Shown here: positions 2,879 through 62,450 of the stretch, in pieces
Layout: every line of letters begins with the position of its first letter
How positions within the stretch are numbered: the first letter of the stretch is position 1
From: Octopus sinensis
Taxonomy: Eukaryota
Reading direction: 5' to 3'
NCBI RefSeq assembly: GCF_006345805.1
Contig: NC_043011.1
Location: forward strand, 558,001 to 622,000
DNA length: 64,000 nt
Position numbers and translations under genes: made by a program
The notes under the pieces: model-generated
What the model was told of the DNA's origin: nothing
What the model saw: only the letters and a program-made list of their open reading frames with translations
Databases searched by the model: none

Positions 2879-2913
<35 letters not shown>

Positions 2914-2918
<5 letters not shown>

Positions 2919-5627: not shown

Positions 5628-5750
5628 TTCTTTTACTCGTTTACTTGTTTCAGTCATTGGATTGTGGCCATGCTGGAGCACTACCTTTAGTCGAGCAAAT
5701 CGACTCCAGGACTTATTTATTGTAAGTCTAGTACTTATTCTATCAGTCTC
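5628..5750 (-). mobile_element. SINE family A, 3' fragment
   Basis: Matches the 3' part of the full copy at 25201-25618. Confidence 0.85.
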
Positions 5751-10569: not shown

Positions 10570-11315
10570 AAGTTATAAATGACAGAAATATTTTGATTGA
10601 ATTTTATTTAACAATAATAAAATTCTAAAAACATGTAAATAACTTATACTATTATATTTAACAATACATAAATTACATGCCTGCATTAATACAAACGGAA
10701 AAAATCTTTCAAAATAAGGCAGAATTGAAGCGAGATCCTCAAATGGAAGAAAGTCTTTGTTAAATTCTAAATTCTCGACGTAACGTTATAGGAACGCAAA
10801 GTCAAAATTTTAAAAGATTATGGAAGACAATAATAATAAAATTGATATAAATTAATAAGAGGATATTCTAATAAATGGAAGAGAATTTTAGTAATATAAT
10901 TAAAAAGTAACTACTACATATTATTAGAACAATAAAAAATCCTAAAAATCTGGAAAAAGGTAGTAAACAGAGAGAAAAATATAATAATAATGATATTAGT
11001 AATAATGATAATAATAATAATGATAATAATAATAATATTGATAATAACAACAACAACAAACTAAAACTAAATAAAAGTAGAGACAATATTTATGAAATAC
11101 AGGGATTGACATCAGCAAGAAAATGTGAACAATGTTAAATTTTTAAAAGATTAGAAATTTGAAGATATAAGTAAATATAAAAAAAAAATTATATAAAGCG
11201 TGAACGACAACGAAAACAAAACATAAATCAATGAACCATTCTTCCAAGATGAGAAGGGAAATCCATCAAGATTTCAAGAAATAATGATTACTATGTATAT
11301 ATATACGTATATATA

Positions 11316-11667
11316 CTCTTTTACTTGTTTCAGTCATTTGACTGCGGCCATGCTGGAGCACCGCCTTTTAGTCGAGTAAATCGACCCCCAGGACTTATTC
11401 TTTGTAAGCCTAGTACGTAAACACACCACCGTCGGTTGTCAAGCAATGGTGGGGAGACAAACACAAACACACAAATATATACACACATACATATATATAC
11501 ATATATACGACGGGCTTCTTCCAGTTTCCGTCTACCAAATCCACTCACAAGGCTTTGGTTGGCCCGAGGCTATAGTAGAAGATATTTGCCAAAGGTGCCA
11601 CGCAGTGGGAATGAACCCGGAACCATGTGGTTGGTAAGCAAGCTACTTACCACACAGCCACTCCTGC
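11316..11667 (-). mobile_element. SINE family A (tRNA-derived), internal deletion
   Basis: Reverse complement of 25201-25618, including the A/B-box head. Confidence 0.9.
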
Positions 11668-20554: not shown

Positions 20555-21143
20555 TATGTGGTAAGTTTGCTTCCGAACCACATGGTTCCGAGTTCAGTCC
20601 CATTGCGTGACATCTTGGGCAATTGTGTTCTACTGTGGCCTCGGATCAACCAAAGCCTTGTGAGTGGATTTGGTAGTAGAAACTGAAAGAAGCCCGTCGT
20701 ATATACATTACTGTAGCCCGAGGCTATAGTAGAAGACACTTGCCCAAGGTGCTACGCAGTGGGACTGAACCCGGAACCAAATGGTTGGTAAGCAAGCTAC
20801 TTACCAACCCCCTGGTTCTGGGTTCAGTCCCATTGCGTGGCAGCTTGGGCAAGTATCTTCTACTATAGCCTCGGGCCGACCAAAGCCTTGTGAGTGGACT
20901 TGATTGACGGAAACTGAAAGAAGCCCGTGTATGTATGTGTGTGTATACGTTTGTGTGTCTATTTGTCCTCCCAACATCGCTTGACAACCGATGCTAGTGT
21001 AACATAGCGGTTCGACAAAAGAGACCGATAGAATAAGTACTAGGCTTACAAAGAATAAGTCCTGGGATCCATGTGTTCGACTAAAGGCAGTACTTCAGCA
21101 CGGCCGCAGTCAAATGACCGAAACAAGTAAATGAATAAAAGAA
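20555..21143 (+). mobile_element. SINE family A compound insertion with an internal inverted segment (20714-20806)
   Basis: 5' part (+), 5' part (-), then near-complete body (+). Confidence 0.85.
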
Positions 21144-23707: not shown

Positions 23708-25200
23708 TTTCAAGTATCTGTCGAATTTTTGGGGGGAAAATAGACGCAATCAGAGTTTGTGGAAGGAAAGACAGCTAATACTAGAATTAAATTTCTTCTT
23801 AATTTTTATCATCTTTATGGCGAGTTCATAATCGTGAGAGGTAATTCCCTTATGAGATGCTGGCGAAATGAAGTCTGTGAGAGAAACGATTGGAAATGAA
23901 GCCTGTTTAGTGTTTATATTAATCTGTCAGTCAAGCAGTAGAGCTGAGTAAAGTCTAGGTTTAGTTGAGTGCGATCCAGCATTTAGTAGAAAACGTAATG
24001 TAATAAAATTACCTTTCTAAATTACTTGACAATTTAAATTTAACTATCGTTAAATAGAATTCTATTAAAATGGAATTAAGCTGAATTACGTTTGCTGTGC
24101 TGATTATAAACTCGTGATTGGAAGGTTGCTTTAAATTTAGAAATTTGATAATATTATGTAGTGAGTATATCAAAAGTGAGGAATAAGAATCATTAGAAAG
24201 TGATTTAATTATCAGGTAAATTAACTCAACATACGATTATTTGGGAGAGGATTTTTTGCAAGATTAAATCGTGGGTGGGTTAATAACCAATAAGTTTTTA
24301 AATTGAACTCCTTCGAGGCGAAGGGAAATCCCAGTCCTTATTCTGAGCTCAATTTTAATGAAACAGGTATTTCTAATCAGGATAATGAAAATGATAAAAT
24401 ATCTCATGTGTCTAGTCAGGATGTAACGGATGATAACATTTCAATGTCTCATATAGGGAATAGCCTACAATAAATGAAAATTCTGATAACTATAGGCCTA
24501 ATGAGTTATGTCTTGTTGGATCCGTAGAAAATGGATAACCAATGTTTAAGGGAAAATATATATAATGTTTGATAAGAACACTTGGAAGTGTCTATCTGTA
24601 TTCAGGCACTTCTGCTACAAAATTCAAGGCCAGAAGAATAATTGCAAAACTTGCTTTAAATACAAAAGAAAAGAAACCGTTACCTTACGGAAGTAGAGTT
24701 AAATAAACCCATACTTAAATTACTTTCTAATGATGTTTAGCCTTCACTTCTGATATATCCACTAAATAATCTTATAGACACTCCTTTCCTAACTATTTCT
24801 AAACTTGATACTGCCTTCCAATCACGAGTTTATAATCATCACACGTAACGTATTTCAGTTTAATTGCTTTTTAAACTTTTAGTTAATAGCATTCTACTTA
24901 ACGATAGTTAACTTTAAATTGTCAAATTATTTAGAGAAGTAATTTTATTACATTCTGGCATAAATTGCAATAAAAATTACTACCATTATACGGAGGAGTG
25001 CTACATATGATGTAGCATGATTTAGAGTTGTTAACATTATTCACCCTGAGGGTCCAAATGAATTTGGCCAATAACAAACGGTTTTCTTTTATATTATATA
25101 ATATTTAAAAGAAGTAATGCGATTATTTATCTAGCCTCGAATTTTGTAGCGAAATAGCCTAAGAAATAATAGACATTTCGAGGTATTATTATCAAACATA

Positions 25201-25618
25201 GGCGTAGGAATGGCTGTGTGGTAAGTAGCTTGCTCACCAACCACATGGTTCCGGGTTCAGTCCCACTGCATGGCACCCTGGGCAAGTGTCTTCTACTATA
25301 GCCTCGGGCCGACCAAAGCCTTGTGAGTGGATTTGGTAGACGGAAACTGAAAGAAGCCCGTCGTATATATGTATATATATATATATATATATATGCGTGT
25401 GTGTGTTTGTGTGTCTGTGTTTGTCCCCCCAACATCGCTTGACAACCGATGCTGGTGTGTTTACGTGCCCGTAACTTAGCAGTTCGGCAAAAGAGACCGA
25501 TAGAATAAGTACTAGGCTTACAAAGAATAAGTCCTGGGGTCGATTTGCTCGACTAAAAGGTAGTGCTCCAGCATGGCCACAGTAAAATGACTGAAACAAG
25601 TAAAAGAGTAAAGAGTAA
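25201..25618 (+). mobile_element. SINE family A, full length (tRNA-derived head, internal microsatellite, AAAGAGT tail)
   Basis: A box TGGCTGTGTGG, B box GGTTCAGTCC; about 10 related copies or fragments in the window. Confidence 0.93.
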
Positions 25619-26619
25619 ACATTATATATATATATTTCCCTTAAACATTGATTATACATTTCCTATACTTCCTACATGACATAAGTTATTAGGCCTATAT
25701 TTATAAGAATTCTCATTTATTGTATTAGTTTTAAGGCCATTCCTTATATGAGACATTGAGATATTATTATTCGCTACACACTGACTAGACACATGTGACA
25801 TATTAGTTTCTTTAGCCTGTTTCATTAAAGTTAAGCCTAGATCGCTTCATACGCTCAGAATAAGGACTAGAATTTTCCATAGGCTGGAAGGTGTTCAGTT
25901 TTAAAAATTATTTCTTATGAATCCACCCACGATTTAATCTTGTAAGAAATCTTCTCCCAAATTATCGAAAGTTGAATTAATTAACTCGATATGTTTTAAT
26001 GATTTTAATTCTTCATTTTTGATATACTCACTAAATAATGTTATCAACAATGTTATCAACATTCCTTTCCGAACTATTTCTCAATACAACCTTCCAGTCA
26101 CGAGTTTCTAATTGTTACACTTTACATAATTTAGTTTAATCATTTTTTAATGTTTTAGTCAATAGAATTCTATTTAACAATATTAATTGTAGTTTAACGA
26201 TTGCTAACTTTAAATTGTCAAATAATTTAGAAAGGTAATTTTATTACATTCTGTTTTCTACTAAATGCTGGATCGCAATGCTGGATCGCACTCAACTAAC
26301 CCTATTAAATAGGCTTTATTTCCAATCGCTTCTCACGCAAACTTCATTTCGCCAACATCTGGTGACAGAATTACCTCTCACAAGTATGAACTCACTGTAG
26401 AGATAATAAAAAAGGTGACGAAATTTATGTCTAGTATTATGTCTTCTAAAAAATTCGACAGATATTTGAAAGCACCGACGAGAATTCATCGTGAAATAAC
26501 TGTTTCTCAAATTAGGTTATTGATCGATCAAATAATTGATCGAGTGAGCCTTCAAACTATAGTGTGTAATGGACTTAACTCATTGGATCATCCGAAACAT
26601 GTATATTTCTTCATCGCCA

Positions 26620-27791: not shown

Positions 27792-28766
27792 ATATATATA
27801 TATATATATGTAATTAATAAAAAAATAAACGAAGTAAAAACACAGCAAGTAAAAAACAACAACGCGAGGACGTGGTACATGCAAAGTATTAAAAGACGCT
27901 GAGGGGAGGAAAGAAAGGTTACAGAGGAAAGTCCAAGAGAAGGGGATGACAGAGGGAAGAAAAATCGCCAACAACCCCCACACACACACACACACACAAA
28001 CACCCCCATACACATGCATGTATATATATATATGTATGTATGCATGTATGTATGTATGTATGTATGCATGCATGCATGTATGTGTGTATGTATATGTATT
28101 TCGGGCGATTATAGTCCCTGACAATGTATATGTATACAATTATGTGCTTTGCCTACAGCATTATAGCATTTTAGCTTTATTTCTGGCAGTGTAAGTATGT
28201 AGGTGTTTCTAATACCCAAGTCATATTTAGTGACAATTGTAACTTATTACTGGATTGATAAGATCATTTTGTGAAGACATGATTCTTGTGAACCCTCATA
28301 TGTCTTTCAAGAACCGAAATCGATTTGCAAGCCCTTTCACACACTATGCATATCGAACCACCAGTTGCTCTTTCATGGGACTTCAGATGGTTGACCTACC
28401 CAGTCTAGGAAAGGAGTACGCAACCACAAGTCTCCCCCCTCCAGCATTTCATGTTCCCGTTGAGGTTCTCTGAAGCCAGCTCTTTAGGCTTCGTGCTCAT
28501 GGTGACCTACAACTATTTAACAACCTTCCCTTACACACTTCGTCCAGAGCTTATTCTTCCCAGTTCTTTACATTGATTTGCAGATTCTTCAGGCCGCCTT
28601 TTGTGCAGTCTTCGTATATTTTGCTTTTGGTTTGTGCTGAGAACGCTTTTGTGCAGACTTTATATATTTTAATAAATCTCTGAACGAGGTATAAACAGTA
28701 ACTGCACGACAATGTGAGGGGTATTTGCAAAGGGAGGTCATCCTTTCCTCGTCAACCTAAGTGATA

Positions 28767-28811
28767 CGCACGGACTGCAGTTTCTAGGTATTGACCTGTC
28801 ATCAGCGTACG
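28767..28811 (-). ncRNA. Type I hammerhead ribozyme (left arm of palindrome 28720-28917)
   Basis: Exact reverse complement of 28827-28871. Confidence 0.88.
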
Positions 28812-28826
28812 ACAATCACCGTTTTT

Positions 28827-28871
28827 CGTACGCTGATGACAGGTCAATACCTAGAAACTGCAGTCCGTGCG
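28827..28871 (+). ncRNA. Type I hammerhead ribozyme, canonical core
   Basis: CGUACG-CUGAUGA-CAGGU(CAAU)ACCUA-GAAA-CUGCAG-UC^CGUGCG; palindromic stem III ACUGCAGU. Confidence 0.9.
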
Positions 28872-29030
28872 TATCACTTAGGTTGACGAGGGAAGATGAC
28901 CTCCCTTTGCAAATACCTTTGGGCACAGAAAGTGTGCCTAAAGCCAGCTGGAGACGATGTTCTCCTGGGGCTACAAGCTACAGTAACACCCACCCTTAGT
29001 GGTTAGCCATATTGAGATGGCAAATATCCC

Positions 29031-29200
29031 TCACTTTGTATATTTTGCTTTTGGTTTATATTGAGGACACTTTCCAATGTACATTTCATTATAGAACAAC
29101 TGCTTTGGAATCCTATTATCCATCATGTGCACAACATCGCCTGCCCAACGCATCTGTGTAGATATGATGAATGTCTGGATGCTTGTGCATCCTGCCTTTG
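29031..29200 (-). mobile_element. RTE/BovB-like LINE remnant
   Basis: QMRWAGDVVHMMDNRIPKQLFYNEM. Confidence 0.7.
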
Positions 29201-29262
29201 CATACTTACATATATACAGACATATGTACATACATATATACAGACACACATATATACATATA

Positions 29263-29670
29263 GGCGCAGGCGTGGCTGAAGTGGTACGAAGATTGCTTTT
29301 CGGAAACATTCTACGTTCAGTCCCACTGCGTGACACCTTGGACAGGTGTCTTCTACTATACCTCAAAACCAAGCAAAGCCTTGTGAGAAGATTTGGCTGA
29401 CGGAAACTGAAGCCCGTCGTATATATACAAATACACACACACACACACACACATACATCCATACATCCATACATACATGTGTACATGCACACAGACACAC
29501 ATATATGTGTGTATGTATGCGTATATAAATATATATATATATGTGTGTGTGTGTGTATGTGTGTGTGAATATGAGTCTATGCTTGTGTAACTTTGTGTGT
29601 GTTCTGTTTGTCCCCCACCAGTGCTTGACAACCAATGTTGATTTGTGTAGGTCTGATGTGGTAACTCTGT
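29263..29670 (+). mobile_element. SINE family A, diverged copy
   Basis: Head ggcgcaggcgtggctg; body similar to 25201-25618. Confidence 0.75.
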
Positions 29671-39480: not shown

Positions 39481-39779
39481 CAAACAACAATTTCAAATTA
39501 TATCCTTTTTTTTTTATAACCCTAACTCCAAAATATTTTTTAAATTTTAATTTTGTCCTGATTAAATCGAGAAATACATGCATGCAGTGAATAAGTTAAT
39601 AGTGAAATATAACGAAATATATGAAGCAGAATAAGTAATAGTGAAATAAGTGTAAATACAAATGCATGTAGTATATTAAATATATATTGTTCACATATAG
39701 CGTATGATATATTTATTGATTAGATTTACTAATGAGTAAAAGGAGATAACTCATTCGATCATAAGAAATTATGAACATA

Positions 39780-40187
39780 GGCGCAGGAGTGGTTGTGTGG
39801 TAAGTAGCTTGTTTACCAACCACATGGTTCCGGGTTCAGTCCCACTGCATGGCACCTTGGGCAAGTGTCTTCTACTATAGCCTCAGGCTGACTAAAGCCT
39901 TGTGAGTGGATTTGGTAGACGGAAACTGAAAGAAGCCCGTCGTATATATGTATATATATATATGCGTGTATGTGTTTGTGTGTCTGTGTTTGTCCCCCTA
40001 GCATTGCTTGACAACCGATGCTGGTGTGTTTATGTCCCCGTCACTTAGCGGTTCGGTAAAAGAGACCGATAGAATAAGTACTGGGCTTACAAAAGAATAA
40101 GTCCCGGGGCCGAGATGCTCGATTAAAAGGCGGTGCTCCAGCATGGCCGCAGTCAAATGACTGAAACAAGTAAGAGTAAAGAGTATA
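39780..40187 (+). mobile_element. SINE family A, full length
   Basis: Near-identical to 25201-25618. Confidence 0.93.
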
Positions 40188-40874
40188 AAGACATTGGTTG
40201 AGCACTATGAAACAAAGAAAACAGCTGGCTATTGCGACCATTCTCGGACACCCACTTCAATAGGTTGTTCGAACGTATCAACCTTCGTAATTATTTTTAA
40301 GCAACAGAAATCTAAACGTACACTTATGCCCATATCTACATTGATCAACCCGGAGGTGCATGATCACGAAGCGAACTTTTGATCATACAGCCATGGCTAC
40401 ACCTTTGTTATTCTGATATCATTATTATTGCTTTAGAATCGACAGCTCAATGAGGCTGTTGCAATACTTCGTTCACTAAGCCATATGAACTTTTCTCTGA
40501 TATGAAAATACGTAAATGTGTGATACAGCGTATCAAGATTTGTTGAAGCTTTACCAACGTAGTCTCGCAATAGTTGAATAATATTACAGACAGAATATGT
40601 CTTGGATGTCATTCAAGAGTTAAGATTGTTTACTTACTGACGTAAAGTGAAAAATAATGAATGACCAACTCGCAAGGTAGAAGAGGTGATAAGTGTAAAA
40701 TAAAGATCGTTTTACATACCTATGTGGAATTTCCACAATCAAAAAGAACCAAATGCTTCGAGTCAAACACAATTTCGAAAGAAATACATTTCATGGTTCT
40801 CTACAGACTTCAAGTCATCTTTCAGTTTTCAAAATAACCGTGGAATTTTCACGAATACTGCTAGTTATTATTGC

Positions 40875-41413: not shown

Positions 41414-41597
41414 ATGTGAGAGTGTGTTAACAAGGGTATGAGCGTGGGGTTTTAAACCTTAATACTTGTACGTGTATCCTGCAAGTGTACGTATGTGCTT
41501 GCTCGTACGCACGTGTGCGTACGCTTACCTGTGTATATTTGTGAGTGTGTGTGTGTATGTGTGTCTGTTTTATGAAGTGATGTGTATTACTCATTTA

Positions 41598-41957
41598 CTC
41601 ATTTACTTGTTTCAGTCATTTGACTATGGCCATGCTGGAGCACCGCCTTTAGTCGAGCAAAGTGACCCCCGGACTTATTCTTTGTAAGCCTAGTATTTAT
41701 TCTATCGGTCTCTTTTGCCGAACCGCTAAGTTACGGAGACGTAAACACACCAGCATCGGTAAACATACAAGCGATGTTGGGAGGACAAACACAACAGACA
41801 AACATACACACATATATATACATATATACGACGGGCTTCTTTCAGTTTCCGTCTACCAAATCCACTCACAATGCTTTGGTCGGCCCGAGGTTATAGTAGA
41901 AGACACTTGCCCAAAGTGCCACGCAGTGGGACTGAACCCGGAATCATGTGGTTTGTA
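41598..41957 (-). mobile_element. SINE family A, head-truncated
   Basis: Reverse complement of the 25201-25618 body. Confidence 0.9.
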
Positions 41958-42513
41958 ATCGAGTTACATGTGCACTGTCTTTTCACATCGTCATCAGTAT
42001 TTTCTCGATTCTATGTTTTTGACAACGAGAGTCATCAACAACAGGTAGCGAGTTTCGCTAAAGGGAAAATCAGAGAAACATCTGTTAACTTTAGCAAAGT
42101 AATAGTCATAGTGAACTTTAGAGTAGAAGATAAATCAGTTAGTAACTTAAAAGAGGTGCACCGAGGAAGCATGCCTTGAATAAGGAAGCGCAATCAGGTC
42201 CTAGAGTATATTTTTAAATATTGTACTTATTTTAGTGATTTATATTTATCACAAGGCTAGGTTATGGGACATAAGCAGAGACCACTTTTGAAAATGATGT
42301 CAAACGTAAAGACAGAAATATACTTAGACACATACAAATACACAAACACACACGCACACAGACACACACGCGCGCGCGCACACACACAACTATTACTAAT
42401 ATATATCGTAAAATTCGTGTGGCTGGAACTTTTAAGTGTCTCCGGAAAACATATTTAACCAATCTGTTGAATAAACTGTCAAGCTTGTTTTTTTTTTTTG
42501 TACAAAGCGCTTG

Positions 42514-45900: not shown

Positions 45901-48111
45901 TTACCTGTATTGCTATTCATTTTGTGTATTAGGTATTTCATTGTTATATCCTGATTGGAGTTTTAGAGTTTGTATTGACCGGCCATCTTCTCGATGACAA
46001 AGTTGTAAGGAAATGATTTTTTTAAAAAGAAAAGATGACTTTATTCTTTTCGTCATTCTCTGTACAACATTTTATATTTTGCGTAGGTATTGCTGATTTT
46101 AAAACAGGTTGGTTTCTAAAAGAACACTATTATCGTTGGTATTTAAATATCGTCACACTTCGACACATATTTACATCTTCTAGGCTGTTGATCGTCACAA
46201 ATGATCATAGCTTTTTTCTGAGTCAAATAATTAAATCAGTCAAGATTGTTGATAGTATTCGACGGAATAGTTAACACGTATGTAATAATTTTCCTTTTAC
46301 TGATACGTAGCTATAGTTTCATCGCTAGAAATAGATTAAGCAGTGCCTTAATGACATTTTGTAACTGCTGTTGATCACTCAAGTAATATCTTCCTCAGAT
46401 ATGTGACATAATTGGCATTTTCTGTTCTTGATTACTTCTTATTCTTTTTCAAGTGTAATGTTACAGCTATCACTTGCTCATTGACTGGCGACAGTATAAT
46501 ACTGAAATGTAACAAGATGTAATCCAGTATAGTGTCCAAAGTGTCGATACCAGAATACCGGTACAACAAACGCTTTGTAGTATGTTGTCTTGCAGCAAGA
46601 GGTTCAGATAACCATCAGTGTTCAGAGCAATTTGTATGAGACAGAGTCATAAATAACTACGTATTTGGAGAGGAAGAGAACATTGTGAAATTATTGATCA
46701 TAATGTCTTTCGGTTGAAAAGCATTTTCCCAAGTTCAACTATAAGTATGAACATTTTTGTCAGCCAAAGTCAATTTCTTTATAAATCGCAAATGTTGTTA
46801 TTAAATCCATTCCCCTCCTTTATTATAAATATTTCCAATGTAGATTTTAAGATCTCCAACAAAAAGATCATGAGTTACATTTGAGCTTCTTACAAACTTT
46901 AGCATAAAACTACTTCACCTTCATGAAACAATGACTGTTTGCTACCAAAATAAATCTATAAACAAAGAGATTAATTCCCTAGAATATTTATTTTGAAATA
47001 TGTTTTCAAATCAGTTACAATTCTATCCTTGTGTTTTCAGTTTCAAATAAGAGAACGATTGATCAGATTTTTGTGAGGATTTCAATAACAGTAAACTAGT
47101 TCAGTGAACAATTTTGCTACATGCAGTGATTCCAGGTGTCATAAGTTGTGAATATAGTAAAAAGCCCTTTTGCCAAATTGTCACTAGGATTATGAGTTCC
47201 CAAATTTTCAAGAAGATCCCACAAAGTTTTCTAAAATAAGTCCACAACACCTACAGAAAAGCACACTCACATAATGTATGGGAGGAGGATAGAGGGATAA
47301 CCTGGATTAGTTCTTGCACATTTTTATAATGCCTACTTTAATAAGTTCAAATAACACACTACTAAAAGGGTGCTCATGCTTAGAATCGAATGTAAGAAAT
47401 ATTTATAAAAACAGTCAACACATTTCACCTGCTTAAACACATACGTTAAGATGTATAAATTGCAACCAAATATTTTTCTCTAGTGCCAAATATGCCGACC
47501 AATAACAATTAAAACTACCTAAATACTCTTGTGAACATTAAAACATTTAATTAAAAAATATTCCATACTAATATCACTGTAATATGTTTAAATGATAACC
47601 AACACCCTCCCAATAAAACATGCGAAAAGTCATAAATAATATCAATCTGCCAACTAACTAAACCTTTTGTGAATCCTTAAATACCAACCCACTAAAAACT
47701 GACATACCCACATGAATACAAAGATCAAAACACTGAACTGAACTCTAAGATTTAATCTTCACATTCTCAAAACAAAAGGTAAATATCCCGAAAGGTAAAT
47801 ATCCCATTAATATCTAAACAAGACCAACGACAGTCAACCAAATGAAAAATTTGCTAATAACCTAGCAACATTCCTTTGTGAACACCTTCAACTTAAAAAA
47901 TGATACACCTAAACATACACACCTAATTACAAAGCATGAATAAATTCTAACCATTAGCACTTCTCCAAAGTTAATCAATAAAAATTCTACATTCTATCTT
48001 GTCACCATAACCTACCTTGCAGCATAATTACCATTCAGCAGAACTCTAGTTTCTCTAGACATTTTAAACTTAACATAGATTATATAAAACCAAAATGAAC
48101 TCAAACGAATT

Positions 48112-48156
48112 ACAGTCCTGTGATGGCTTCCGTGGCCGAAACTTCGAAGTTACTGT
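48112..48156 (+). ncRNA. HHR-like motif (core missing A6) at the end of an AC-rich PLE-type 3' UTR
   Basis: ACAGU-C-CUGUGA-UGGC..GCC-GAAA-CUUCGAAG-UU^ACUGU; AATAAA tail follows. Confidence 0.6.
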
Positions 48157-48590
48157 CATTACCATTCTTATTAAAGAATAATAAATTGCTACTCTACCAA
48201 ATGTATTGAGTAGTCCTTCAATTGAATGTAATTACAACACAAAAAAACCATTAATATATATAAGTTAAAGACACCAGAATTTAGTATGGTATTATCCATA
48301 TAATTTAAAATAAGGTGATTATAATTGATGTAATGTTTTCATTGTTCAATTAAATGGAGTCGCATGAAACGATCGTACTGAATTACCTCTGGGTATCCTT
48401 GTTGCTTATTTTAATTATATATATATATATATATATAACATCTGAATGTGGCTAGGGACAGGGCAGGGCGGTGGGGGTGTTACTGATGCATTTAGCCCCA
48501 GGCGATCATCAACGTCACCAGGAGGGCTGACACCATCACGGCGTCCTCTAGCCTGCAAAGGGAGATCATTCCCCGAAGAAGCGGATGCCA

Positions 48591-48635
48591 CATACGGACC
48601 TAGGTTTCAAGGTGTTTGCCTATTATCAACGTATG
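48591..48635 (-). ncRNA. Type I HHR, U3-A8 variant
   Basis: CAUACG-UUGAUAA-UAGG(CAAACA)CCUU-GAAA-CCUAGG-UC^CGUAUG. Confidence 0.88.
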
Positions 48636-48945
48636 GCAGGCACCGCTCCCTCGACGAACGACTCTCTGTGCAGGCTATATATAAAGATTTTCACAGTAAA
48701 TACATTTACTGATGTAGAAAATCTGTTCGACAGCAATAATAATTCTCTAAACGAGATATAGACAGTAACTGCTCCATAACATAAGGGACGTTGGCCATCT
48801 GAATGTGGCTAGGGACAGGGCAGGGCGGTGGGGTGTTACTGATGCATTTAGCCCCAGGCGATCCTCAACGTCACCAGGAGGGCTGACGCCATCACGGCGT
48901 CCTCTAGCCTGCAAAGGGAGATCATTCCCCGAAGAAGCGGATCCA

Positions 48946-48990
48946 CATACGGACCTGGGTTTCAAGGTGTTTGCCTATTATCAACGTATG
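48946..48990 (-). ncRNA. Type I HHR, second unit (stem III CCCAGG)
   Basis: Same as 48591-48635 with one substitution. Confidence 0.85.
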
Positions 48991-49268
48991 GCAGGCACCG
49001 CTCCCTCGACGAACGACTCTCTGTGCAGGCTATATATAAAGATTTTCACAGTAAATACATTTACTGATGTAGAAAATCTGTTCGACAGCCATAATAATTC
49101 TCTAAACGAGATATAGACAGTAACTGCTCCATAGCATAAGGGACGTTGGCCATCTGAATGTGGCTTATTGCTGTCGAACAGATTTTCTACATCAGTAAAT
49201 GTATTTACTGTGAAAATCTTTATATATAGCCTGCACAGAGAGTCGTTCGTCGAGGGAGCGGTGCCTGC

Positions 49269-49313
49269 CATACGTTGATAATAGGCAAACACCTTGAAAC
49301 CTATGTCCGTATG
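49269..49313 (+). ncRNA. Type I HHR, inverted unit (stem III CCUAUG)
   Basis: Same as 48591-48635 with one substitution. Confidence 0.82.
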
Positions 49314-49699
49314 TGGCATCCGCTTCTTCGGGGAATGATCTCCCTTTGCAGGCTAGAGGACGCCGTGATGGCGTCAGCCCTCCTGGTGACGTTGATGATC
49401 GCCTGGGGCTAAATGCATCAGTAACACCCCCACCGCCCTGCCCTGTCCCTAGCCACATTCAGATGGCCAACGTCCCTTATGTTATGGAGCAGTTACTGTC
49501 TATATCTCGTTTAGAGAATTATTATTGCTATATATATATGTATATATATCCCTCTCTCGCTCATTCTTCTTTCTGGTTTTCTCTACCATTCTCTCCCTTT
49601 CACGTTCCCTTTCTCTTACTCCTCCTCCTCCTCATCCTCCTCCCTCTCGTCACTGACATGTGACCAGAGGCCATCTGTCTTTCTGACCACAGCCTTCAA

Positions 49700-53108: not shown

Positions 53109-53119
53109 TATATAGAAGG

Positions 53120-53170
53120 AGCTTCTACAGGACTAGTACTGTTTCATTCAAGAGAAATCTTCAGGAAGCT
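53120..53170 (-). ncRNA. Type I hammerhead ribozyme (left arm)
   Basis: Reverse complement of 55413-55463. Confidence 0.85.
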
Positions 53171-53451
53171 ATTTAGCAAGAATTGTATTAGCATTTATAC
53201 ATTTAGGCAGGTTTAAAGGAGAGGTGGTGGGGGACTTTTTTGGGGGTAGGCATAGCGCAAAATATCATACTTGGGGGAGTGGTCAAGGAGTCAGTGGTAA
53301 GTTAGATGAAAGAATAGATAAATAAAAAAATAAAAAATAAAAAATAAAAAATAAAAAAATAAAATGTGTGCACATACATACATAAACACATATACATACA
53401 CACACACATACGTACACATGTGTGCCTATACATACCTACACATACACACAT

Positions 53452-53500
<49 letters not shown>

Positions 53501-54026
53501 CACATATATATATATACACATATATATATATACACAATCCAATACAGGCCCATTCCCTAATTTTAATTTTATTATCTTCATTTATTACTTTTGTTATCTT
53601 TGATCGCTAGAGCTAAGGATCCTGGCGATGGCAGCATGTCCAAATTGTCTGTCTACTAGAAGGCAAGTACTCGTTCCCGCACGCACACTCATTAGCACGT
53701 ACATACACCCATTCGTACACTCATACACATACACGTACGCACGCGTTATATTCATACATACAAACATCTACATACGTTCACGTATATACACATACGTACT
53801 CGTACCTACAGATTCATGTCTACACTTTAGGAGGCTAGTCTATATATATACACCAATAAATATACATATATATACACATATATACATATATATATACACA
53901 TATACACATACACACACACACACACATATATATACTCCTACATACAGATACATACCTATATATATATATATACATACACACACATACATATACACATATA
54001 TATATATACATATATATACATACATA

Positions 54027-54064
<38 letters not shown>

Positions 54065-54280
54065 CATACATACACACACACCCATATATATACACACACA
54101 TACACACATATATATACATACACAAACATATATACACACATATATATATATATACATATATACACACATACATACACACACCTACATACATATACACACA
54201 AACACATACATACGTAAACATACATACATACATCCATACATCCATACTTACATGCACTTATACGCATACACACACACCCA

Positions 54281-54344
<64 letters not shown>

Positions 54345-54558
54345 TGGGTGTGTGTGTATGCGTATAAGTGCATGTAAGTATGGATGTATGGATGTATGTA
54401 TGTATGTTTACGTATGTATGTGTTTGTGTGTATATGTATGTAGGTGTGTGTATGTATGTGTGTATATATGTATATATATATATGTGTGTATATATGTTTG
54501 TGTATGTATATATATGTGTGTATGTGTGTGTATATATATGGGTGTGTGTGTATGTATG

Positions 54559-54609
<51 letters not shown>

Positions 54610-55412
54610 ATATATGTATATATATATATGTGTATATGTATGTGTGTGTATGTATATATATATATATAGGTATGTATCTGTATGTAGGAGTATATATATG
54701 TGTGTGTGTGTGTGTATGTGTATATGTGTATATATATATGTATATATGTGTATATATATGTATATTTATTGGTGTATATATATAGACTAGCCTCCTAAAG
54801 TGTAGACATGAATCTGTAGGTACGAGTACGTATGTGTATATACGTGAACGTATGTAGATGTTTGTATGTATGAATATAACGCGTGCGTACGTGTATGTGT
54901 ATGAGTGTACGAATGGGTGTATGTACGTGCTAATGAGTGTGCGTGCGGGAACGAGTACTTGCCTTCTAGTAGACAGACAATTTGGACATGCTGCCATCGC
55001 CAGGATCCTTTAAAATTAAAATTAGGGAATGGGCCTGTATTGGATTGTGTATATATATATATGTGTATATATATATATGTGTATATATATATATATATGT
55101 GTATATATATATATATATATATGTATGTGTATGTGTGTATGTGTAGGTATGTATAGGCACACATGTGTACGTATGTGTGTGTGTATGTATATGTGTTTAT
55201 GTATGTATGTGCACACATTTTATTTTTTTATTTTTTTATTTTTTATTTTTTATTTTTTTATTTATCTATTCTTTCATCTAACTTACCACTGACTCCTTGA
55301 CCACTCCCCCAAGTATGATATTTTGCGCTATGCCTACCCCCAAAAAAGTCCCCCACCACCTCTCCTTTAAACCTGCCTAAATGTATAAATGCTAATACAA
55401 TTCTTGTTAAAT

Positions 55413-55463
55413 AGCTTCCTGAAGATTTCTCTTGAATGAAACAGTACTAGTCCTGTAGAAGCT
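55413..55463 (+). ncRNA. Type I hammerhead ribozyme, canonical core
   Basis: AGCUUC-CUGAAGA-UUUC(UCUU)GAAU-GAA-ACAG(UACUAGUC)CUGU-A^GAAGCU. Confidence 0.87.
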
Positions 55464-55546
55464 CCTTCTATATAATAAATTAATTTTACTCTGCTATGTA
55501 TTGAGTACCTTACTTACTGTGGTTAACCCCGGATCAACCCGGGACC

Positions 55547-55586
<40 letters not shown>

Positions 55587-55723
55587 TCAATAAATGGTGG
55601 GGTTGTGTTGACCGCACGTGGAGAAATGATAAGTAAGGAAAAATTATTTTAAAAATGCAGAATGCTCAAATGAAAGAAAATTTTAATAAAATGAGAAATT
55701 GATAAAATATATAAATATATATT

Positions 55724-55764
55724 TATTCAACCGGTTTTCGTCATTGTATGACTTGTCAAGAATA
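55724..55764 (-). ncRNA. PLE pseudo-LTR hammerhead (U3-A8 variant, extra A after GAAA)
   Basis: UAUUC-UUGACAA-GUCAU(ACA)AUGAC-GAAAA-CCGG-UU-GAAUA. Confidence 0.75.
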
Positions 55765-56392
55765 TTTATGTTTTAAAAAGTTTTTTTAAAAATTAGAAAG
55801 GGGAAAAAAAGAAAATTGCATTGTTTTTTGTAAAAGAATAATGATAAAAATGTACAAAAATTAAAAAATAAGTTCTCCGATACATTGTGAGTTCGTTGTG
55901 TATCTTGAGTTTTATGGTTGTTTACGAAAAAATTACCTTGAGGTGTTAAGATCCAAAGGGATTAAGAGCATGTGTTGTGTTGTTAAATTCAGCATGTTTG
56001 CAGGACAGGAAGTAGTAGTAATTGTGGTCCTGGTTCTTCAGTTCCTGTGTTGTGAGTAAGGGGAGACAACTCTTTTGAGTTCTTCAATAAAACCCAAATT
56101 ATAAAATTATCATTTTAGCTTCATTTGCGTTATCTTTTTTATATAATTGCTTGTTAACTTAACTTTCAGATTTTAACACTTTATTTATATTATTTTCTAA
56201 TTATATAAATCTGCATAGACAATTGCATTTCAAATTGTCATATCATTTATAATAAAAATGATAGTAATAACAACAATAGTAAAAATGATATTTAAAGAAT
56301 ATAAGTTTTAGCTTGAAGTGATAAATGCATGGTATCTTTATATATTTGTGTTAGTCCATCCATGAAGAGTGAGGTAGAGAAAGGAAGTTTGA

Positions 56393-58741
56393 TCAACGAG
56401 GAGTTTGCATATTAAGTTGTGTTTGGAATTTTTCAATAAAGAGATTCTCCTTGTTAATTCTCTCCTGTGTGGTGATCCCGTCTTTACATTGGTAGAAGGG
56501 GAATATATAGAATTTGGGGTTTAAGTCTTTAGCACATGAGTCTAAGTGGTCACTCAGTGGAATTTGTCGGTATTCCGGGAGATTTATTTGTTCTTTATGC
56601 ACCGTTACTCGTTTACGTAACGGGAGACTCGTTTGTCCAACATAATTATGTTGGCAACCAGCGCATGTGAGAAAGTAGATAAGGTTCTCGGAGGAACAGG
56701 AGAAGTTAGTCTTGATTTTAAACTTCGTACCTTGTTTGAAGGTAAATTCAGAGCCTTCAAGTAGAAAGGGGCAGGTACCACAGTTTGAGCGTGCACATTT
56801 TTTTACTGTTGGGGGTGGATGTGGTGTGTGAAGTTTGGCATTTGTCAAGAGTTTTTTTAAAGATTTGTGTTGCCTTTTGCATTTGAGGATTTTGTGTGTA
56901 TTTATAATGTTTTTCATTTTTGGGTCTGTTGACAGTAGACTGAGGTTTTGTATGATTGTGGTGTATGCTTCGATATTTTTGGGGTTGTGGGTGGAAATGT
57001 ATGGAAGTATTTTGAGGTTGTGTGTGGTGTTAGGTTGGGTGGTTTTCAGTGTAGTGTTGTCTAGTTCTTTGGTGCGTTTTATTCCATACTCTATAAGGGT
57101 GGAGGGATATTGACGTTGTAATAGTGTTTTTTTGAGGTCTTGAAGGCGTATTTCTCGTGTTTTTGGATCCGAGACAATGGTGCATACCCTTTTAGCTAAA
57201 TTGAAAGGGATATTTGTCTTGGTGTGTTTTGGGTGGCATGAACTAAAGAGGAGGTATTGTTGTGAGTCTGTAGGTTTGTGGTAGATGTCTGTTATGATTT
57301 CGTTCTTAGGTGTTTTTATAATTAGGAGATCAAGGAATGGGAGATGATGTTTGCTTAATTCCATAGTGAATTGGATGTTGGGATGTATGTTGTTTAGTAT
57401 GGTTTTGAATTCCAGGAGTTTTTCATAAGGTTCTTTCCATATGATGAAACAATCATCTAAATACCTTTTCCAGTTTTCCATTAGGTAGGTGTGGAAAACA
57501 TGTCCAAATTTCTGGCTTGATATTTCATAGAGTGACAGTTCGAAGTAACCCATTATGAGGTTCGCAAGGACTGGTGCAGCCTTGGTACCCATCGCAATAC
57601 CACATTTTTGACGGTAGTGTGTGTCGTCGAAGAGAAAAAAATTGTTTGTCAGAATGAACTTGAGAGATTCTGTAATAAAAGACTTGTTAATGCGGTCAGG
57701 GAATGTCTCTGGGTGTTTTTCTAGCCAGAAGTCAATTGCCTCTATACCATACTCATGTGGAATGTTGGTGTAGAGGTTGATGACATCAAAGGATACCAGG
57801 AGTGCCTCCTCGTTAACTGTTTTCGGGAGGTGTTTGAGCATGTCCAGATCATCCCTAATGAAACTTTTGATGTGGGTAAGGAAAGGTTTCAAAAGGATGT
57901 CTAGGAAGTTACTCAGGCGGTGTGTTTCACAGGAGGTACCAGCCACGATGGGCCTTAGTTTTAGGTCCTCCGGTGCTTTGATGTTGATGTGGATGTCAGT
58001 GGAGAGTTTGCAGGCTTCGGTGATGTATTTGTTTTTATGGATTTTAGGAAGGCCATAAAAAAGGCTGGGCTTGCATTTGAAAATGGTGATATAATCCCTT
58101 TCTTTTTCTGTGAGTCCCTGACCGTGTTGGCGTATGAGTGTGGTGAGGTTTCTGATTGTTTTTTGCTGTTTGTAGTTGTTAATAACCTCATAGAAAATGT
58201 TATTGTTAAGCATGGAAAACACTAGGTGTTTATAAAATTCCGTGTCCATAAGGACCACAGCACTCCCTTTGTCCGCTTCTTTGATGGTGAGGTTTTTATC
58301 CAGTTGTATGTCACGTAGGTTTTCCCATTCTTCCTTACTGAAATTGGATTTTACCTTGGTTTTGCTTGGGGTAAAGGGGAGACTCTGGATGTGTTTGCAG
58401 AAATCGTCCAGTGTTTTATTTCTCCCTTGTGGTGGTAGGAAGTTGCTTTTATTTCTGATCAATGAATCGTCCCCATTGTTGATATCTGTCAAAGCTTCTG
58501 TTAGGCGAAGTTTTCTGCAGAATTCAGAAACGTCATCCTTGACCTCCGGGGGGTTGGGTGTTCTTGGGGTGGGTGTGAATTTCAAACCTCTTGCTAGGAT
58601 GTTGATTTGGGTTGGTGTCAGTGTTTTGCTGGAGAGGTTTATAATTTTTGTTTTCTTATTTTGGGTCTGTGTTAGCGGTGGTGTTTGTATTTTTCCCCTC
58701 TGTCTAAAAAATGGTTGTTGAGGTAAGGAGTGTATTCTTTG
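56393..58741 (-). CDS. PLE ORF2: reverse transcriptase + Cys linker + GIY-YIG endonuclease (stop-to-stop, no initiating AUG)
   Basis: IINLSSKTLT..ILARGLKFTPTP, DKG, FYGLPKIHK, RPIV, SFDVINLYTNIP, GIAMG, RYLDD, LPFLD, CARSNCGTC, LIYFLTCAGC..YVGQT..R..H..H; uninterrupted. Confidence 0.96.
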   Translation of the reverse strand, partial: QRIHSLPQQPFFRQRGKIQTPPLTQTQNKKTKIINLSSKTLTPTQINILARGLKFTPTPRTPNPPEVKDDVSEFCRKLRLTEALTDINNGDDSLIRNKSNFLPPQGRNKTLDDFCKHIQSLPFTPSKTKVKSNFSKEEWENLRDIQLDKNLTIKEADKGSAVVLMDTEFYKHLVFSMLNNNIFYEVINNYKQQKTIRNLTTLIRQHGQGLTEKERDYITIFKCKPSLFYGLPKIHKNKYITEACKLSTDIHINIKAPEDLKLRPIVAGTSCETHRLSNFLDILLKPFLTHIKSFIRDDLDMLKHLPKTVNEEALLVSFDVINLYTNIPHEYGIEAIDFWLEKHPETFPDRINKSFITESLKFILTNNFFLFDDTHYRQKCGIAMGTKAAPVLANLIMGYFELSLYEISSQKFGHVFHTYLMENWKRYLDDCFIIWKEPYEKLLEFKTILNNIHPNIQFTMELSKHHLPFLDLLIIKTPKNEIITDIYHKPTDSQQYLLFSSCHPKHTKTNIPFNLAKRVCTIVSDPKTREIRLQDLKKTLLQRQYPSTLIEYGIKRTKELDNTTLKTTQPNTTHNLKILPYISTHNPKNIEAYTTIIQNLSLLSTDPKMKNIINTHKILKCKRQHKSLKKLLTNAKLHTPHPPPTVKKCARSNCGTCPFLLEGSEFTFKQGTKFKIKTNFSCSSENLIYFLTCAGCQHNYVGQTSLPLRKRVTVHKEQINLPEYRQIPLSDHLDSCAKDLNPKFYIFPFYQCKDGITTQERINKENLFIEKFQTQLNMQTPR

Positions 58742-60165
58742 TTAAAGTTCTGGTTGTATGTGTAGGAGTGTTTTTGGGTGGGGAGGTTGGAGGGGGGTAG
58801 GTAGTTGTCGTATTTGTGTTGGTATGGGATGCGATGGTGTAAGGATTTGTGAGAAATGCGATGGGTTTGTGGGTGTGTGTCTGGTAGATTGTATGGGGGG
58901 ATGTAGGGGGGTATGTAGTTGTGGTGATTGGGTTCGTATGGGATGTGAGGGTTTGGAGATCTGTAGGATATGTGGTAGGAATGTGGTTGTTGGATGGGTG
59001 GACTATAGGGGGTTCGTTGGGTGGGTATTATATGTATCGGTGTGGGTAGGATGCCTTGTTTGTTATTGGTGTGAGGGAGGGGAGCCTTGAGGGGAGGATA
59101 ATTTCTAGTGTATGGGAGGTTCTTGAAGGTTCTAATCGGTGGGGGAGGGGTGTTAGAGTGATTGGAAAACCAGGTTTTGTGGTGGGTCTTGTTTGAGATG
59201 TTTCGGGGGGGAAAAGGTTTTTTATATGGTTGGGGGAGGTTGTGTCCTGTTAGGAGGGGGTTTGGAGAGTATGTGTATTTGAGGTGCGGTTTGGAATGGT
59301 GTTTATGGGGTACAGTGGAAGTCTGTGTTGTGGGTACTTTTATGAATGGGTTTTTGGATTTATGGTTTAATATGAATTGTGTTTCATAGTTGAGGAAGAA
59401 ATCTTTGTTGTTTTCCCAGCGTTTAAGGGAGGTTCGTTCTTCCTTTTCACATTCATCTTTCCATAGTTTAATAACAAGTTCGAGGGGCTGTTCGTTGGTG
59501 TGTGAGGTTAGTTCTAGAAGTATCTCATCGTCTATTTTTGTGTATTTTTGTTCGTGGTTTTGTGCTCTGAGTTTTAGAAGTTCTACTTCGGTTTTCATTT
59601 TTTCCAATGTTAGTTTTTCTCTTAGGGAGCGTTGTTTTTCAGGTTCGTCTGGGATGTGTTTGATTTGGAATTTTCGGGGTAGTATGATAGGGGAGGAGTT
59701 TAACCATTTGTCGTAAATTTCAGCTTTGTTTTGGTTTTTGAGCATGTTCCAGAAGAGAAGTTTTCTGTTGTGTAGTTTCTTAGTCCAAGTAGTGATGATC
59801 TGGTTTTTAATGCGTTGTGCTGGGGTTGAAGTGTGTTCCTTCTGTGTGTTGAGTGGTGTCTGAGGTCTCTTTGGCGTTGAATTGGTAAGTAGAGTTTTCA
59901 GTGTAGTGTTGATTTCATTTAGGTTTACATCTATCTTATCCGAAAGTAGAGTTTTCAGTGTAGTGTTGATTTCGTTTAGGTTTACATCAATTTTATCCGA
60001 AAGTTGTTGATGATGGTTGTTTTTTGAGTTGTCCCGGGATTGATGGAAAAGTTCGTCAATTTTTTTGGAGAATGTAAGTAGATGTGTATTGAGTACTTTG
60101 AGTTCTTTTAGAATGGTCTTATTGGTGACTGTCTCTGTAAGAGTGCTCTTGTTTTTCGGAGGCAT
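58672..60165 (-). CDS. PLE ORF1: 497-aa protein, helical/coiled-coil-like N half and Pro/His/Tyr/Asn-rich C half
   Basis: ATG-initiated, uninterrupted; internal 19-aa duplication differs only at 3 synonymous sites; overlaps the ORF2 frame by 70 nt. Confidence 0.85.
   Translation of the reverse strand: MPPKNKSTLTETVTNKTILKELKVLNTHLLTFSKKIDELFHQSRDNSKNNHHQQLSDKIDVNLNEINTTLKTLLSDKIDVNLNEINTTLKTLLTNSTPKRPQTPLNTQKEHTSTPAQRIKNQIITTWTKKLHNRKLLFWNMLKNQNKAEIYDKWLNSSPIILPRKFQIKHIPDEPEKQRSLREKLTLEKMKTEVELLKLRAQNHEQKYTKIDDEILLELTSHTNEQPLELVIKLWKDECEKEERTSLKRWENNKDFFLNYETQFILNHKSKNPFIKVPTTQTSTVPHKHHSKPHLKYTYSPNPLLTGHNLPQPYKKPFPPRNISNKTHHKTWFSNHSNTPPPPIRTFKNLPYTRNYPPLKAPLPHTNNKQGILPTPIHIIPTQRTPYSPPIQQPHSYHISYRSPNPHIPYEPNHHNYIPPYIPPYNLPDTHPQTHRISHKSLHHRIPYQHKYDNYLPPSNLPTQKHSYTYNQNFNKEYTPYLNNHFLDRGEKYKHHR
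58705..58711 (-). promoter_or_regulatory. Candidate -1 ribosomal frameshift slippery heptamer U UUU UUA
   Basis: CAU UUU UUA GAC in the ORF1 frame, within the ORF1/ORF2 overlap; ORF2 is in the -1 frame. Confidence 0.65.
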
Positions 60166-60668
60166 TCTGAATCACACGTGTGGTAGAGGGTACAGTTCAA
60201 TAAATGGTGGGGTTGTGTTGACCGCACGTGGAGAAATGATAAGTAAGGAAAAATTTTTTTTAAAATGCAGAATGCTCAAATGAAAGAGAAGTTTGGCATT
60301 TGTCAAGAGTTTTTTTAAAGATTTGTGTTGCCTTTTGCATTTGAGGATTTTGTGTGTATTTATAATGTTTTTCATTTTTGGGTCTGTTGACAGTAGACTG
60401 AGGTTTTGTATGATTGTGGTGTATGCTTCGATATTTTTGGGGTTGTGGGTGGAAATGTATGGAAGTATTTTGAGGTTGTGTGTGGTGTTAGGTTGGGTGG
60501 TTTTCAGTGTAGTGTTGTCTAGTTCTTTGGCGCGTTTTATTCCATACTCTATAAGGGTGGAGGGATATTGACGTTGTAATAGTGTTTTTTTGAGGTCTTG
60601 AAGGCGTATTTCTCGTGTTTTTGGATCCGAGACAATGGTGCATACCCTTTTAGCTAAATTGAAAGGGT

Positions 60669-61479
60669 ATTTAGCTAAAAGGGTATGCACCATTGTCTCG
60701 GATCCAAAAACACGAGAAATACGCCTTCAAGACCTAAAAAAAAAACACTATTACAACGTCAATATCCCTCCACCCTTATAGAGTATGGAATAAAACGCGC
60801 CAAAGAACTAGACAACACTACACTGAAAACCACCCAACCTAACACCACACACAACCTCAAAATACTTCCATACATTTCCACCCACAACCCCAAAAATATC
60901 GAAGCATACACCACAATCATACAAAACCTCAGTCTACTGTCAACAGACCCAAAAATGAAAAACATTATAAATACACACAAAATCCTCAAATGCAAAAGGC
61001 AACACAAATCTTTAAAAAAACTCTTGACAAATGCCAAACTTCACACACCACATCCACCCCCAACAGTAAAAAAATGTGCACGCTCAAACTGTGGTATCTG
61101 CCCCTTTCTACTTGAAGGCTCTGAATTTACCTTCAAACAAGGTACGAAGTTTAAAATCAAGACTAACTTCTCCTGTTCCTCCGAGAACCTTATCTACGTT
61201 CTCACATGCGCTGGTTGCCAACATAATTATGTTGGACAAACGAGTCTCCCGTTACGTAAACGAGTAACGGTGCATAAAGAACAAATAAATCTCCCGGAAT
61301 ACCGACAAATTCCACTGAGTGACCACTTAGACTCATGTGCTAAAGACTTAAACTCCAAATTCTATATATTCCCCTTCTACCAATGTAAAGACGGGATCAC
61401 CACACAGGAGAGAATTAACAAGGAGAATCTCTTTATTGAAAAATTCCAAACACAACTTAATATGCAAACTCCTCGTTGA
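60669..61479 (+). pseudogene. Inverted truncated copy of the ORF2 3' end (thumb + GIY-YIG)
   Basis: Near-identical protein to the ORF2 C-terminus; frameshift in the A-run near 60736-60746. Confidence 0.9.
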
Positions 61480-62107
61480 TCAAACTTCCTTTCTCTACCT
61501 CACTCTTCATGGATGGACTAACACAAATATATAAAGATACCATGCATTTATCACTTCAAGCTAAAACTTATATTCTTTAAATATCATTTTTACTATTGTT
61601 GTTATTACTATCATTTTTATTATAAATGATATGACAATTTGAAATGCAATTGTCTATGCAGATTTATATAATTAGAAAATAATATAAATAAAGTGTTAAA
61701 ATCTGAAAGTTAAGTTAACAAGCAATTATATAAAAAAGATAACGCAAATGAAGCTAAAATGATAATTTTATAATTTGGGTTTTATTGAAGAACTCAAAAG
61801 AGTTGTCTCCCCTTACTCACAACACAGGAACTGAAGAACCAGGACCACAATTACTACTACTTCCTGTCCTGCAAACATGCTGAATTTAACAACACAACAC
61901 ATGCTCTTAATCCCTTTGGATCTTAACACCTCAAGGTAATTTTTTCGTAAACAACCATAAAACTCAAGATACACAACGAACTCACAATGTATCGGAGAAC
62001 TTATTTTTTAATTTTTGTACATTTTTATCATTATTCTTTTACAAAAAACAATGCAATTTTCTTTTTTTCCCCTTTCTAATTTTTAAAAAAACTTTTTAAA
62101 ACATAAA

Positions 62108-62148
62108 TATTCTTGACAAGTCATACAATGACGAAAACCGGTTGAATA
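62108..62148 (+). ncRNA. PLE pseudo-LTR hammerhead, inverted copy
   Basis: Identical to 55724-55764. Confidence 0.75.
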
Positions 62149-62450
62149 AATATATATTTATATATTTTATCAATTTCTCATTTTATTAAAATTTTCTTTC
62201 ATTTGAGCATTCTGCATTTTAAAAAAAATTTTCCTTACTTACTATATATATATATATATTCCTTATGAGTAGCTGAAGCCGTATTCGTTCGTAATAGCAC
62301 TCTGTATTTCATACTTAATTTATATATATCGTCGAAAGCGCGATAAGCTGTGATATTCGTCTATAAATAGCATCTGTTATAAGTGTACAATGTTAAAAAC
62401 TGAAATATATCAGTAGCGGATGAGAGGTGTCCACAGCGGTGATGTATTGC

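Follow-up and report, generated by a model that had tools for sequence, protein, structure and literature searches.

The locus at 48439-49529 of a 64-kb stretch of the Octopus sinensis genome (the window, meaning the whole 64,000 nucleotides analysed) raises the question of what kind of element consists of two short tandem units joined head-to-head to a third, inverted copy, and of how such an arrangement came to be written into DNA. The answer favoured here, with considerable confidence, is that the locus is an animal non-LTR retrozyme, likely non-autonomous, and likely inserted in a single event by the reverse transcriptase (RT) and endonuclease of a Penelope-like element (PLE). Which form of RNA served as the template is a separate matter, on which the anatomy of the insertion offers hints.

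Anatomy of the insertion

A repeat scan delimits a tandem repeat at 48439-49165 (period 355, 2.0 copies, 98% matches), the unit of which measures ~356 nt (355-357 nt) and lies within a (TA)n microsatellite. The locus as a whole consists of two tandem units plus 15 nt, joined head-to-head to one inverted arm (Table 1), with a single T (1 nt) common to both arms at the junction at 49165. The inverted arm runs through unit positions 301 to 1 and then 357 to 294, which leaves an 8-nt terminal duplication, and its 3' end lies 222 nt downstream of its own predicted cleavage site. Read sense-wise, the arms stand head-to-head, each with its 3' end passing into (TA)n. An earlier note on this DNA had described a tandem dimer of ~357-nt units with a circularly permuted inverted monomer, one full unit long and beginning at a different phase, inserted in (TA)n like nearby PLEs; the repeat scan and the alignment of the arms bear out each part of this description, the inverted copy measuring one unit plus 8 nt and (TA)n lying at both ends of the retrozyme and of the neighbouring PLE alike.

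Two marks of non-autonomous PLE derivatives are accordingly found at the locus, namely a microsatellite target, here (TA)n at both retrozyme ends, and tandem copies with an adjacent 5' inverted copy. No LTR-bounded interior was seen at the retrozyme locus, and any target-site duplication (TSD) is unreadable inside (TA)n. The three copies differ at 8 positions, with unit 1 and unit 2 differing from each other at 7, and letters of unit 1 type give way to those of unit 2 type within 48779-48830, at the phase of the left end and away from a cleavage site. Further to the left, the flank at 48261-48411 is another very high-copy repeat, with a summed contig depth of up to 1.2-1.5 million in two public runs (X1 and X5, described below), and the (TA)n target therefore lies at the end of a repeat.

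Table 1. Positions, in window coordinates, of the retrozyme locus, its parts and the elements compared with it.
Feature	Coordinates	Strand	Remarks
Left target, (TA)11 microsatellite	48416..48437		adjoins 3' end of tandem arm; read from sequence
Unit 1, 357 nt	48439..48795	- (sense)	3' end 158 nt downstream of own predicted cleavage site
Unit 2, 355 nt	48796..49150	-	6/8 private differences among the three copies
Start of third unit, 15 nt	49151..49165	-	runs beyond two complete units
Inverted, circularly permuted arm, 365 nt	49165..49529	+ (sense)	one unit + 8 nt
Right target, imperfect (TA)n	49529..49549		adjoins 3' end of inverted arm; read from sequence
Unit 1 hammerhead motif	48591..48635	-	palindromic stem III intact; predicted cleavage 48597/48596
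Unit 2 hammerhead motif	48946..48990	-	palindrome broken by one change; predicted cleavage 48952/48951
Inverted-arm hammerhead motif	49269..49313	+	stem III C-G pair broken; predicted cleavage 49307/49308
Predicted 355-nt monomer between the two tandem cleavage sites	48597..48951	-	
AT-rich hairpin within the unit	48686..48725		-10.4 and -10.9 kcal/mol on the two strands
Diverged sister element	28595..29075		head-to-head at ~28819; two C3-G8 hammerhead motifs
Autonomous-type PLE (RT + C-terminal GIY-YIG)	55587..62244		comparator and candidate helper class; separate from the retrozyme

The hammerhead motif and the predicted monomer

All three copies carry, by motif scan and by pairing, the type I hammerhead that had been claimed for each unit, with a perfect 6-bp stem I, the core UUGAUAA (U3-A8), GAAA and a GUC site. 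Stem II has 3 bp and a U.U mismatch at its base. The ribozyme strand, absent from the earlier note, is minus in the tandem and plus in the inverted arm, and the U3-A8 core is described as a natural, active hammerhead variant (PMC3088659; PMC4209133). A hammerhead scan of the 64-kb window returned 9 matches, all within four head-to-head elements, as compared to 1 match in 40 block-shuffled windows, and a family-specific pattern found 5 matches in the window and 0 in 100 shuffles. In all four of these near-perfect head-to-head structures the hammerhead motifs point outward. Rfam, searched over the same 64 kb, gave 0 matches at gathering score and, at E<=10, a microRNA-like hairpin and other sub-threshold matches only, with no hammerhead family; the ribozyme call therefore rests on motif, pairing and covariation.

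The palindromic stem III claimed for every unit survives in part, being intact in unit 1 (ACCUAGGU) but broken in unit 2 (ACCCAGGU) and in the inverted arm (ACCUAUGU), such that 2 of the 8 inter-copy differences strike the palindrome. Predicted stem III duplexes reach -11.4 kcal/mol for unit 1 with itself, -6.8 for unit 1 with unit 2, -4.8 for unit 2 with itself and +0.4 for the inverted arm with itself. Animal type I hammerheads that undergo cleavage as dimers typically have a short, palindromic stem III (PMC4209133), and among nine predicted dimers reported in bioRxiv 10.64898/2026.07.22.740005, eight were without cleavage and one was cleaved. Because stem III is damaged in two of three copies, the hammerhead at this locus may, on these modelled duplexes, be weak or dead. 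The two stem III differences may have arisen by chance, or may reflect a bias to slow-cleaving templates.

Folded as a circle, the 355-nt monomer has a predicted energy of -120.8 kcal/mol (z -4.5 against 60 shuffles, 63% paired), and its antisense strand folds nearly as well (z -3.4). Stem I, to which ViennaRNA assigns a probability of 0.9-1.0, is predicted to cap a long rod whose strands derive from either side of the cleavage site; stems II and III have a probability of ~0 both in unit 1 and in the circle, and the active monomeric fold thus differs from the predicted minimum. The strong hairpin that had been pointed out within the unit is real and forms on both strands, but its predicted energies (Table 1) make it a modest one. 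The unit is non-coding (longest ATG-initiated ORF 33 aa on the sense strand and 88 aa on the antisense strand; GC 48.5%), and the ORF with RT and GIY-YIG domains that marks an autonomous PLE is absent from it, no notable ORF being found. A tRNA-derived origin of the unit was considered and rejected, the tRNA gene scan having found none, and a pattern search of the unit found, on the antisense strand only, a single loose A-box-like match and two that resemble a B-box.

A sister element and a multicopy family

A diverged sister element elsewhere in the window (Table 1) is ~75% identical to the retrozyme unit, with 162/215 aligned positions matching in its right arm and 87/115 in a second alignment, and its blocks follow the order of the unit. 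It is rearranged, and its flanks are not (TA)n. Each of its arms stops a few nucleotides upstream of stem I; the left arm is without the middle of the unit, and the right arm seems to invert a second time near 29037.

The sister element retains a stem III palindrome in different letters (ACUGCAGU), and the U3-A8 and C3-G8 palindromes are not predicted to pair with each other (-0.8 kcal/mol, against -11.4 and -11.1 kcal/mol). Compensatory changes between unit and sister convert the core pair from U3-A8 to C3-G8 and a stem I pair from A-U to G-C, and a further stem I pair changes from U-A to U-G, a wobble. In the hammerhead alignment, five rows that represent only two independent lineages, 98.2% of 55 cells are paired and 2 of 11 pairs have changed on both sides. 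As a comparison of two lineages, this covariation is the best evidence that the hammerhead motif may have been under selection.

Public sequencing runs point to a family of copies. Part of the tandem is present in 20 of the 24 listed runs (11 studies, four coded organism labels), the best share in any run being 0.46 of 61 sampled words, and none of those 20 runs is recorded as RNA. Contig mapping covered 4 of the 24 runs, over 48100-48810 only, that is, unit 1 and the left flank. In both of the probable DNA runs, summed contig depth over 15 unit bins (5,548-1,075,410 in X1 and 10,876-706,664 in X5) is at least ~100-fold that of the flank contig matching 48100-48219 without difference (56 in X1, 54 in X5), a measure that is a proxy, gives no copy number, and is read as 'multicopy and diverse' only. 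In X10 and X18, the runs guessed as RNA, the unit occurs in contigs with no excess over the neighbouring repeat, which speaks neither for nor against expression. Most mapped contigs are 90-99% alike or less. Among the rows listed, a pairing-preserving stem I variant at 48593 (U-A to U-G) and a variant inside the stem III palindrome at 48601 each occur in all four mapped runs, and an insertion in loop 2 occurs in two; among the 24 loose contig ends listed, some variants continue across the unit boundary.

Taken together, the contig-depth proxy and the sister element identify the unit as a multicopy family. Unit size, a hammerhead in every unit, the lack of coding content, the GC content, the self-paired fold and the multicopy state all support the retrozyme reading that the earlier note had advanced. 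Pattern matches in metagenomes, 0 in a first scan and then 9, were dismissed as chance, since 0/9 had a stem I of at least 2 bp, unit homology or a self-repeat.

A Penelope-like neighbour with the same architecture

The autonomous-type PLE of the window lies ~6 kb from the retrozyme and combines an RVT_1 match with a GIY-YIG match (E 1.8e-4) that falls narrowly short of the curated threshold. It too forms a partial tandem with a head-to-head inversion, at ~60670, and has (TA)n at both ends; its arms are 99.4% identical and its tail is ~42 nt. U3-A8 hammerhead motifs are found at 55759 (minus) and 62113 (plus), with the two ends of the element 100 and 142 nt downstream of the motif. Stem III is not palindromic in the register of the scan, a palindrome, ACCGGU, requiring an extra A after GAA. 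The architecture of the retrozyme insertion matches that of this neighbour. When the unit was compared with seven PLE-related or flanking regions of the window, homology exceeded shuffles in 0/7; the helper is therefore inferred as a class only.

Several further features of the PLE and of the window can be recorded. The coding sequence of the PLE occupies two overlapping frames of 499 and 782 aa, a C-x4-C-x2-C motif precedes GIY-YIG, and the upstream partial copy shows a jump from the 3' end into the ORF. By its description in PMC8557442 only, the element would be Neptune/Nematis-like. Between the retrozyme and this PLE, 53115-55468 spans 2.35 kb and forms a near-perfect head-to-head palindrome, its interior rich in microsatellites and its left end in (TA)n. 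This palindrome carries, ~10-20 nt inside each outer end, a hammerhead motif with C3-G8, a longer stem III and a GUA site, and is possibly another non-autonomous PLE-mobilised element. A PLE-like RT fragment (RVT_1) at 7475-8317 has degenerate tandem repeats of 210 nt after it, at 9.3-10.2 kb, and a second RT fragment (RVT_1), at 2783-3670, appears RTE-like. An abundant SINE-like family, which we take to resemble an octopus SINE, recurs at 5629-6991, 11314-11667, 20557-21142, 25195-25619, 29260-29426, 39774-40191 and 41587-41967, often with an internal (TA)/(CA) tract and with the copy at 20559-20936 folded back. The host genome is rich in microsatellites.

How the insertion may have arisen

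PLEs are marked by tandem copies with a 5' inverted copy, by tails and by microsatellite targeting (PMC8557442), and in vitro a purified PLE protein cleaves AT-rich DNA, elongates both strands, and initiates reverse transcription within the RNA, downstream of the hammerhead (PMC11167929). On the published retrozyme and PLE models, the tandem loci would be transcribed, the hammerheads would cleave, probably as dimers via their palindromic stem III, and the 355-nt monomer would be ligated into a circle; a PLE protein would then cut both strands of (TA)n, and each DNA end would serve as the primer for reverse transcription starting within the RNA. The enzyme would circuit the template once to make the right arm and twice to make the left, and the two cDNAs would be joined head-to-head at 49165.

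Both arms run across the predicted cleavage sites without a break, and a single cleaved linear monomer is therefore excluded as the template. The template would have been a circular or an uncleaved multimeric RNA, or exact end-to-end jumps would have taken place, possibilities that sequence by itself cannot separate. The earlier proposal of reverse transcription around a circular or multimeric RNA is thus upheld by the crossing of the cleavage sites, but exact end-to-end jumps would fit as well. Two hints favour the circle. Arm lengths are close to whole turns, at two units plus 15 nt and one unit plus 8 nt (post hoc probability ~0.002, one locus), and 6 of the 8 differences are private to unit 2 (probability ~0.06 under random later mutation, likewise post hoc and from one locus). 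The arm ends further hint, at this one locus only, that the reverse transcriptase, copying a circle, halts shortly after passing its starting point. When unit 1 is read as a circle, the inverted arm matches it with 2 mismatches in 365 positions, as compared to 4 mismatches and 2 gaps against contiguous tandem DNA. Because of this better fit, an origin of the inverted arm by plain DNA fold-back is disfavoured, an argument that would fail if the six changes private to unit 2 post-date the insertion (clustering probability ~0.06). Tentatively, and as a somewhat unlikely proposition in this full form, the locus may record directly how a Penelope-type reverse transcriptase copied circular RNA, with both DNA ends primed at internal sites; each run would then have ended 8-15 nt after a full turn, just past its own start, and the left arm would have been built by an enzyme that changed, at the start-site phase, from one variant of the circle to another.

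A serious rival, of appreciable though less than even probability, shares the family assignment and parts from the favoured account at the template step only. It holds that the enzyme copied a linear uncleaved multimer, or jumped end-to-end between successive cleaved monomers. Multimeric RNAs are produced by axolotl retrozymes (PMC7229834), uncleaved RNA is the main substrate of a lizard PLE in vitro (PMC11167929), a damaged stem III would favour uncleaved RNA, and the 7 differences between units 1 and 2 look more like two genomic units than two circuits of one circle. Random truncation of a linear multimer, however, would not predict the ends observed, as both arms finish within 15 nt of whole units (the same post hoc ~0.002), and the switch of letter type falls at the phase of the left end, where there is no cleavage site.

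Another possibility, decidedly less likely, is that the unit is the pseudo-LTR, the hammerhead-bearing end portion, of an autonomous PLE family absent from the window, and the locus an ordinary PLE insertion made from linear RNA, heavily 5'-truncated and with a partial tandem and a 5' inversion. The layout of the locus is indeed the standard PLE layout (PMC8557442), truncated Schistosoma PLEs carry U3-A8 hammerheads in opposite-strand pairs 100-700 bp apart (PMC4209133), and, among 57 retrozyme families of Xenopus, 24 correspond to annotated elements that are almost always PLE termini (bioRxiv 10.64898/2026.07.22.740005). The units are nevertheless self-closing, with two full turns and no ORF sequence between them; the inverted arm is unbroken across the phase at which the tandem ends; the hammerhead is predicted to cap a rod built from both sides of the cleavage site; the sister element, at 75% identity, keeps the same block order; and contig variants, among the loose ends listed, run on across the unit boundary. 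Very improbable is a satellite-like repeat with a fossil hammerhead, amplified at the DNA level by unequal exchange or fold-back repair, or an assembly artefact: the window does contain four near-perfect head-to-head structures, and a DNA route from PLE ends to tandem repeats has been proposed (bioRxiv 10.64898/2026.07.22.740005), but 8 positions vary among the three copies, the two arms terminate at unequal phases of the unit, each in (TA)n, the inverted arm is no mirror of the adjacent DNA, and outward hammerhead motifs occur in 4/4 of the head-to-head structures.

Relation to known retrozymes and Penelope-like elements

Assignment of the locus to the retrozymes is routine, both the class and the PLE hypothesis having been published (PMC7229834; bioRxiv 10.64898/2026.07.22.740005). 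Animal non-LTR retrozymes of coral, mussel and axolotl, as described in PMC7229834, share with the locus a tandem non-coding unit of 150-450 bp (350-390 bp in mussel), a type I hammerhead per unit, a GC content below 50% and a self-paired predicted circle, and axolotl HHR_Amex2 also shares the U.U mismatch at the base of stem II and a 2-bp stem III with a tetraloop. As compared to the elements described there, the locus has a U3-A8 core, a short array of two units, an inverted arm joined head-to-head and (TA)n on either side. Self-cleavage in vitro and expression as linear and circular RNA are further marks of the class. With endonuclease-bearing PLEs and their pLTRs (PMC8557442; PMC4209133; PMC11167929) it has in common the tandem with a 5' inverted copy, the microsatellite target, ends downstream of the hammerhead and two end positions, and with Schistosoma Cercyon-related motifs the U3-A8 core variant (PMC4209133). 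It differs from PLEs in lacking an ORF, in repeating whole units where PLEs form partial tandems, in having no homology to the PLE of the window, and in the offset between its two end positions, which is 64 nt at this one locus as compared to a PLE tail of 30-40 bp (PMC8557442).

Closest in argument is the work of Li, Clavereau & Pollet on vertebrate retrozymes (2026, bioRxiv 10.64898/2026.07.22.740005), in which retrozymes are argued to be non-autonomous PLE derivatives and most families, like the locus, have at most 7 units. The proposal of a parasite and its helper is shared; the evidence there is co-occurrence and pLTR homology, mostly in vertebrates, and here it is the anatomy of insertion junctions in an invertebrate, pLTR homology having been sought in the seven regions of the window and not found. 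Both PLE mobilisation and a circular template stand in print as hypotheses (PMC7229834; bioRxiv 10.64898/2026.07.22.740005). No cephalopod retrozyme, and no retrozyme junction with a 5' inversion, was found in the literature, which is weak evidence given thin coverage of subscription papers and repeat databases; the words 'ribozyme' and 'retrozyme' have 0 occurrences in the main text of PMC13282606, and no relevant passage with 'inverted' or 'microsatellite' was found in PMC7761336.

Implications

What the locus adds is the junction anatomy of a young retrozyme insertion whose marks recur in an autonomous PLE 6 kb from it. The U3-A8 and C3-G8 subfamilies, occurring together in one window, form a natural pair for testing cleavage by dimeric hammerheads. 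Whole-turn arm lengths and internal start sites make both the question of a PLE helper and that of a circular template cheaply testable genome-wide. If the whole-turn rule were true across the genome, it would provide structural evidence that circles, and not linear RNA, template animal retrozymes, and that PLEs are their helper.
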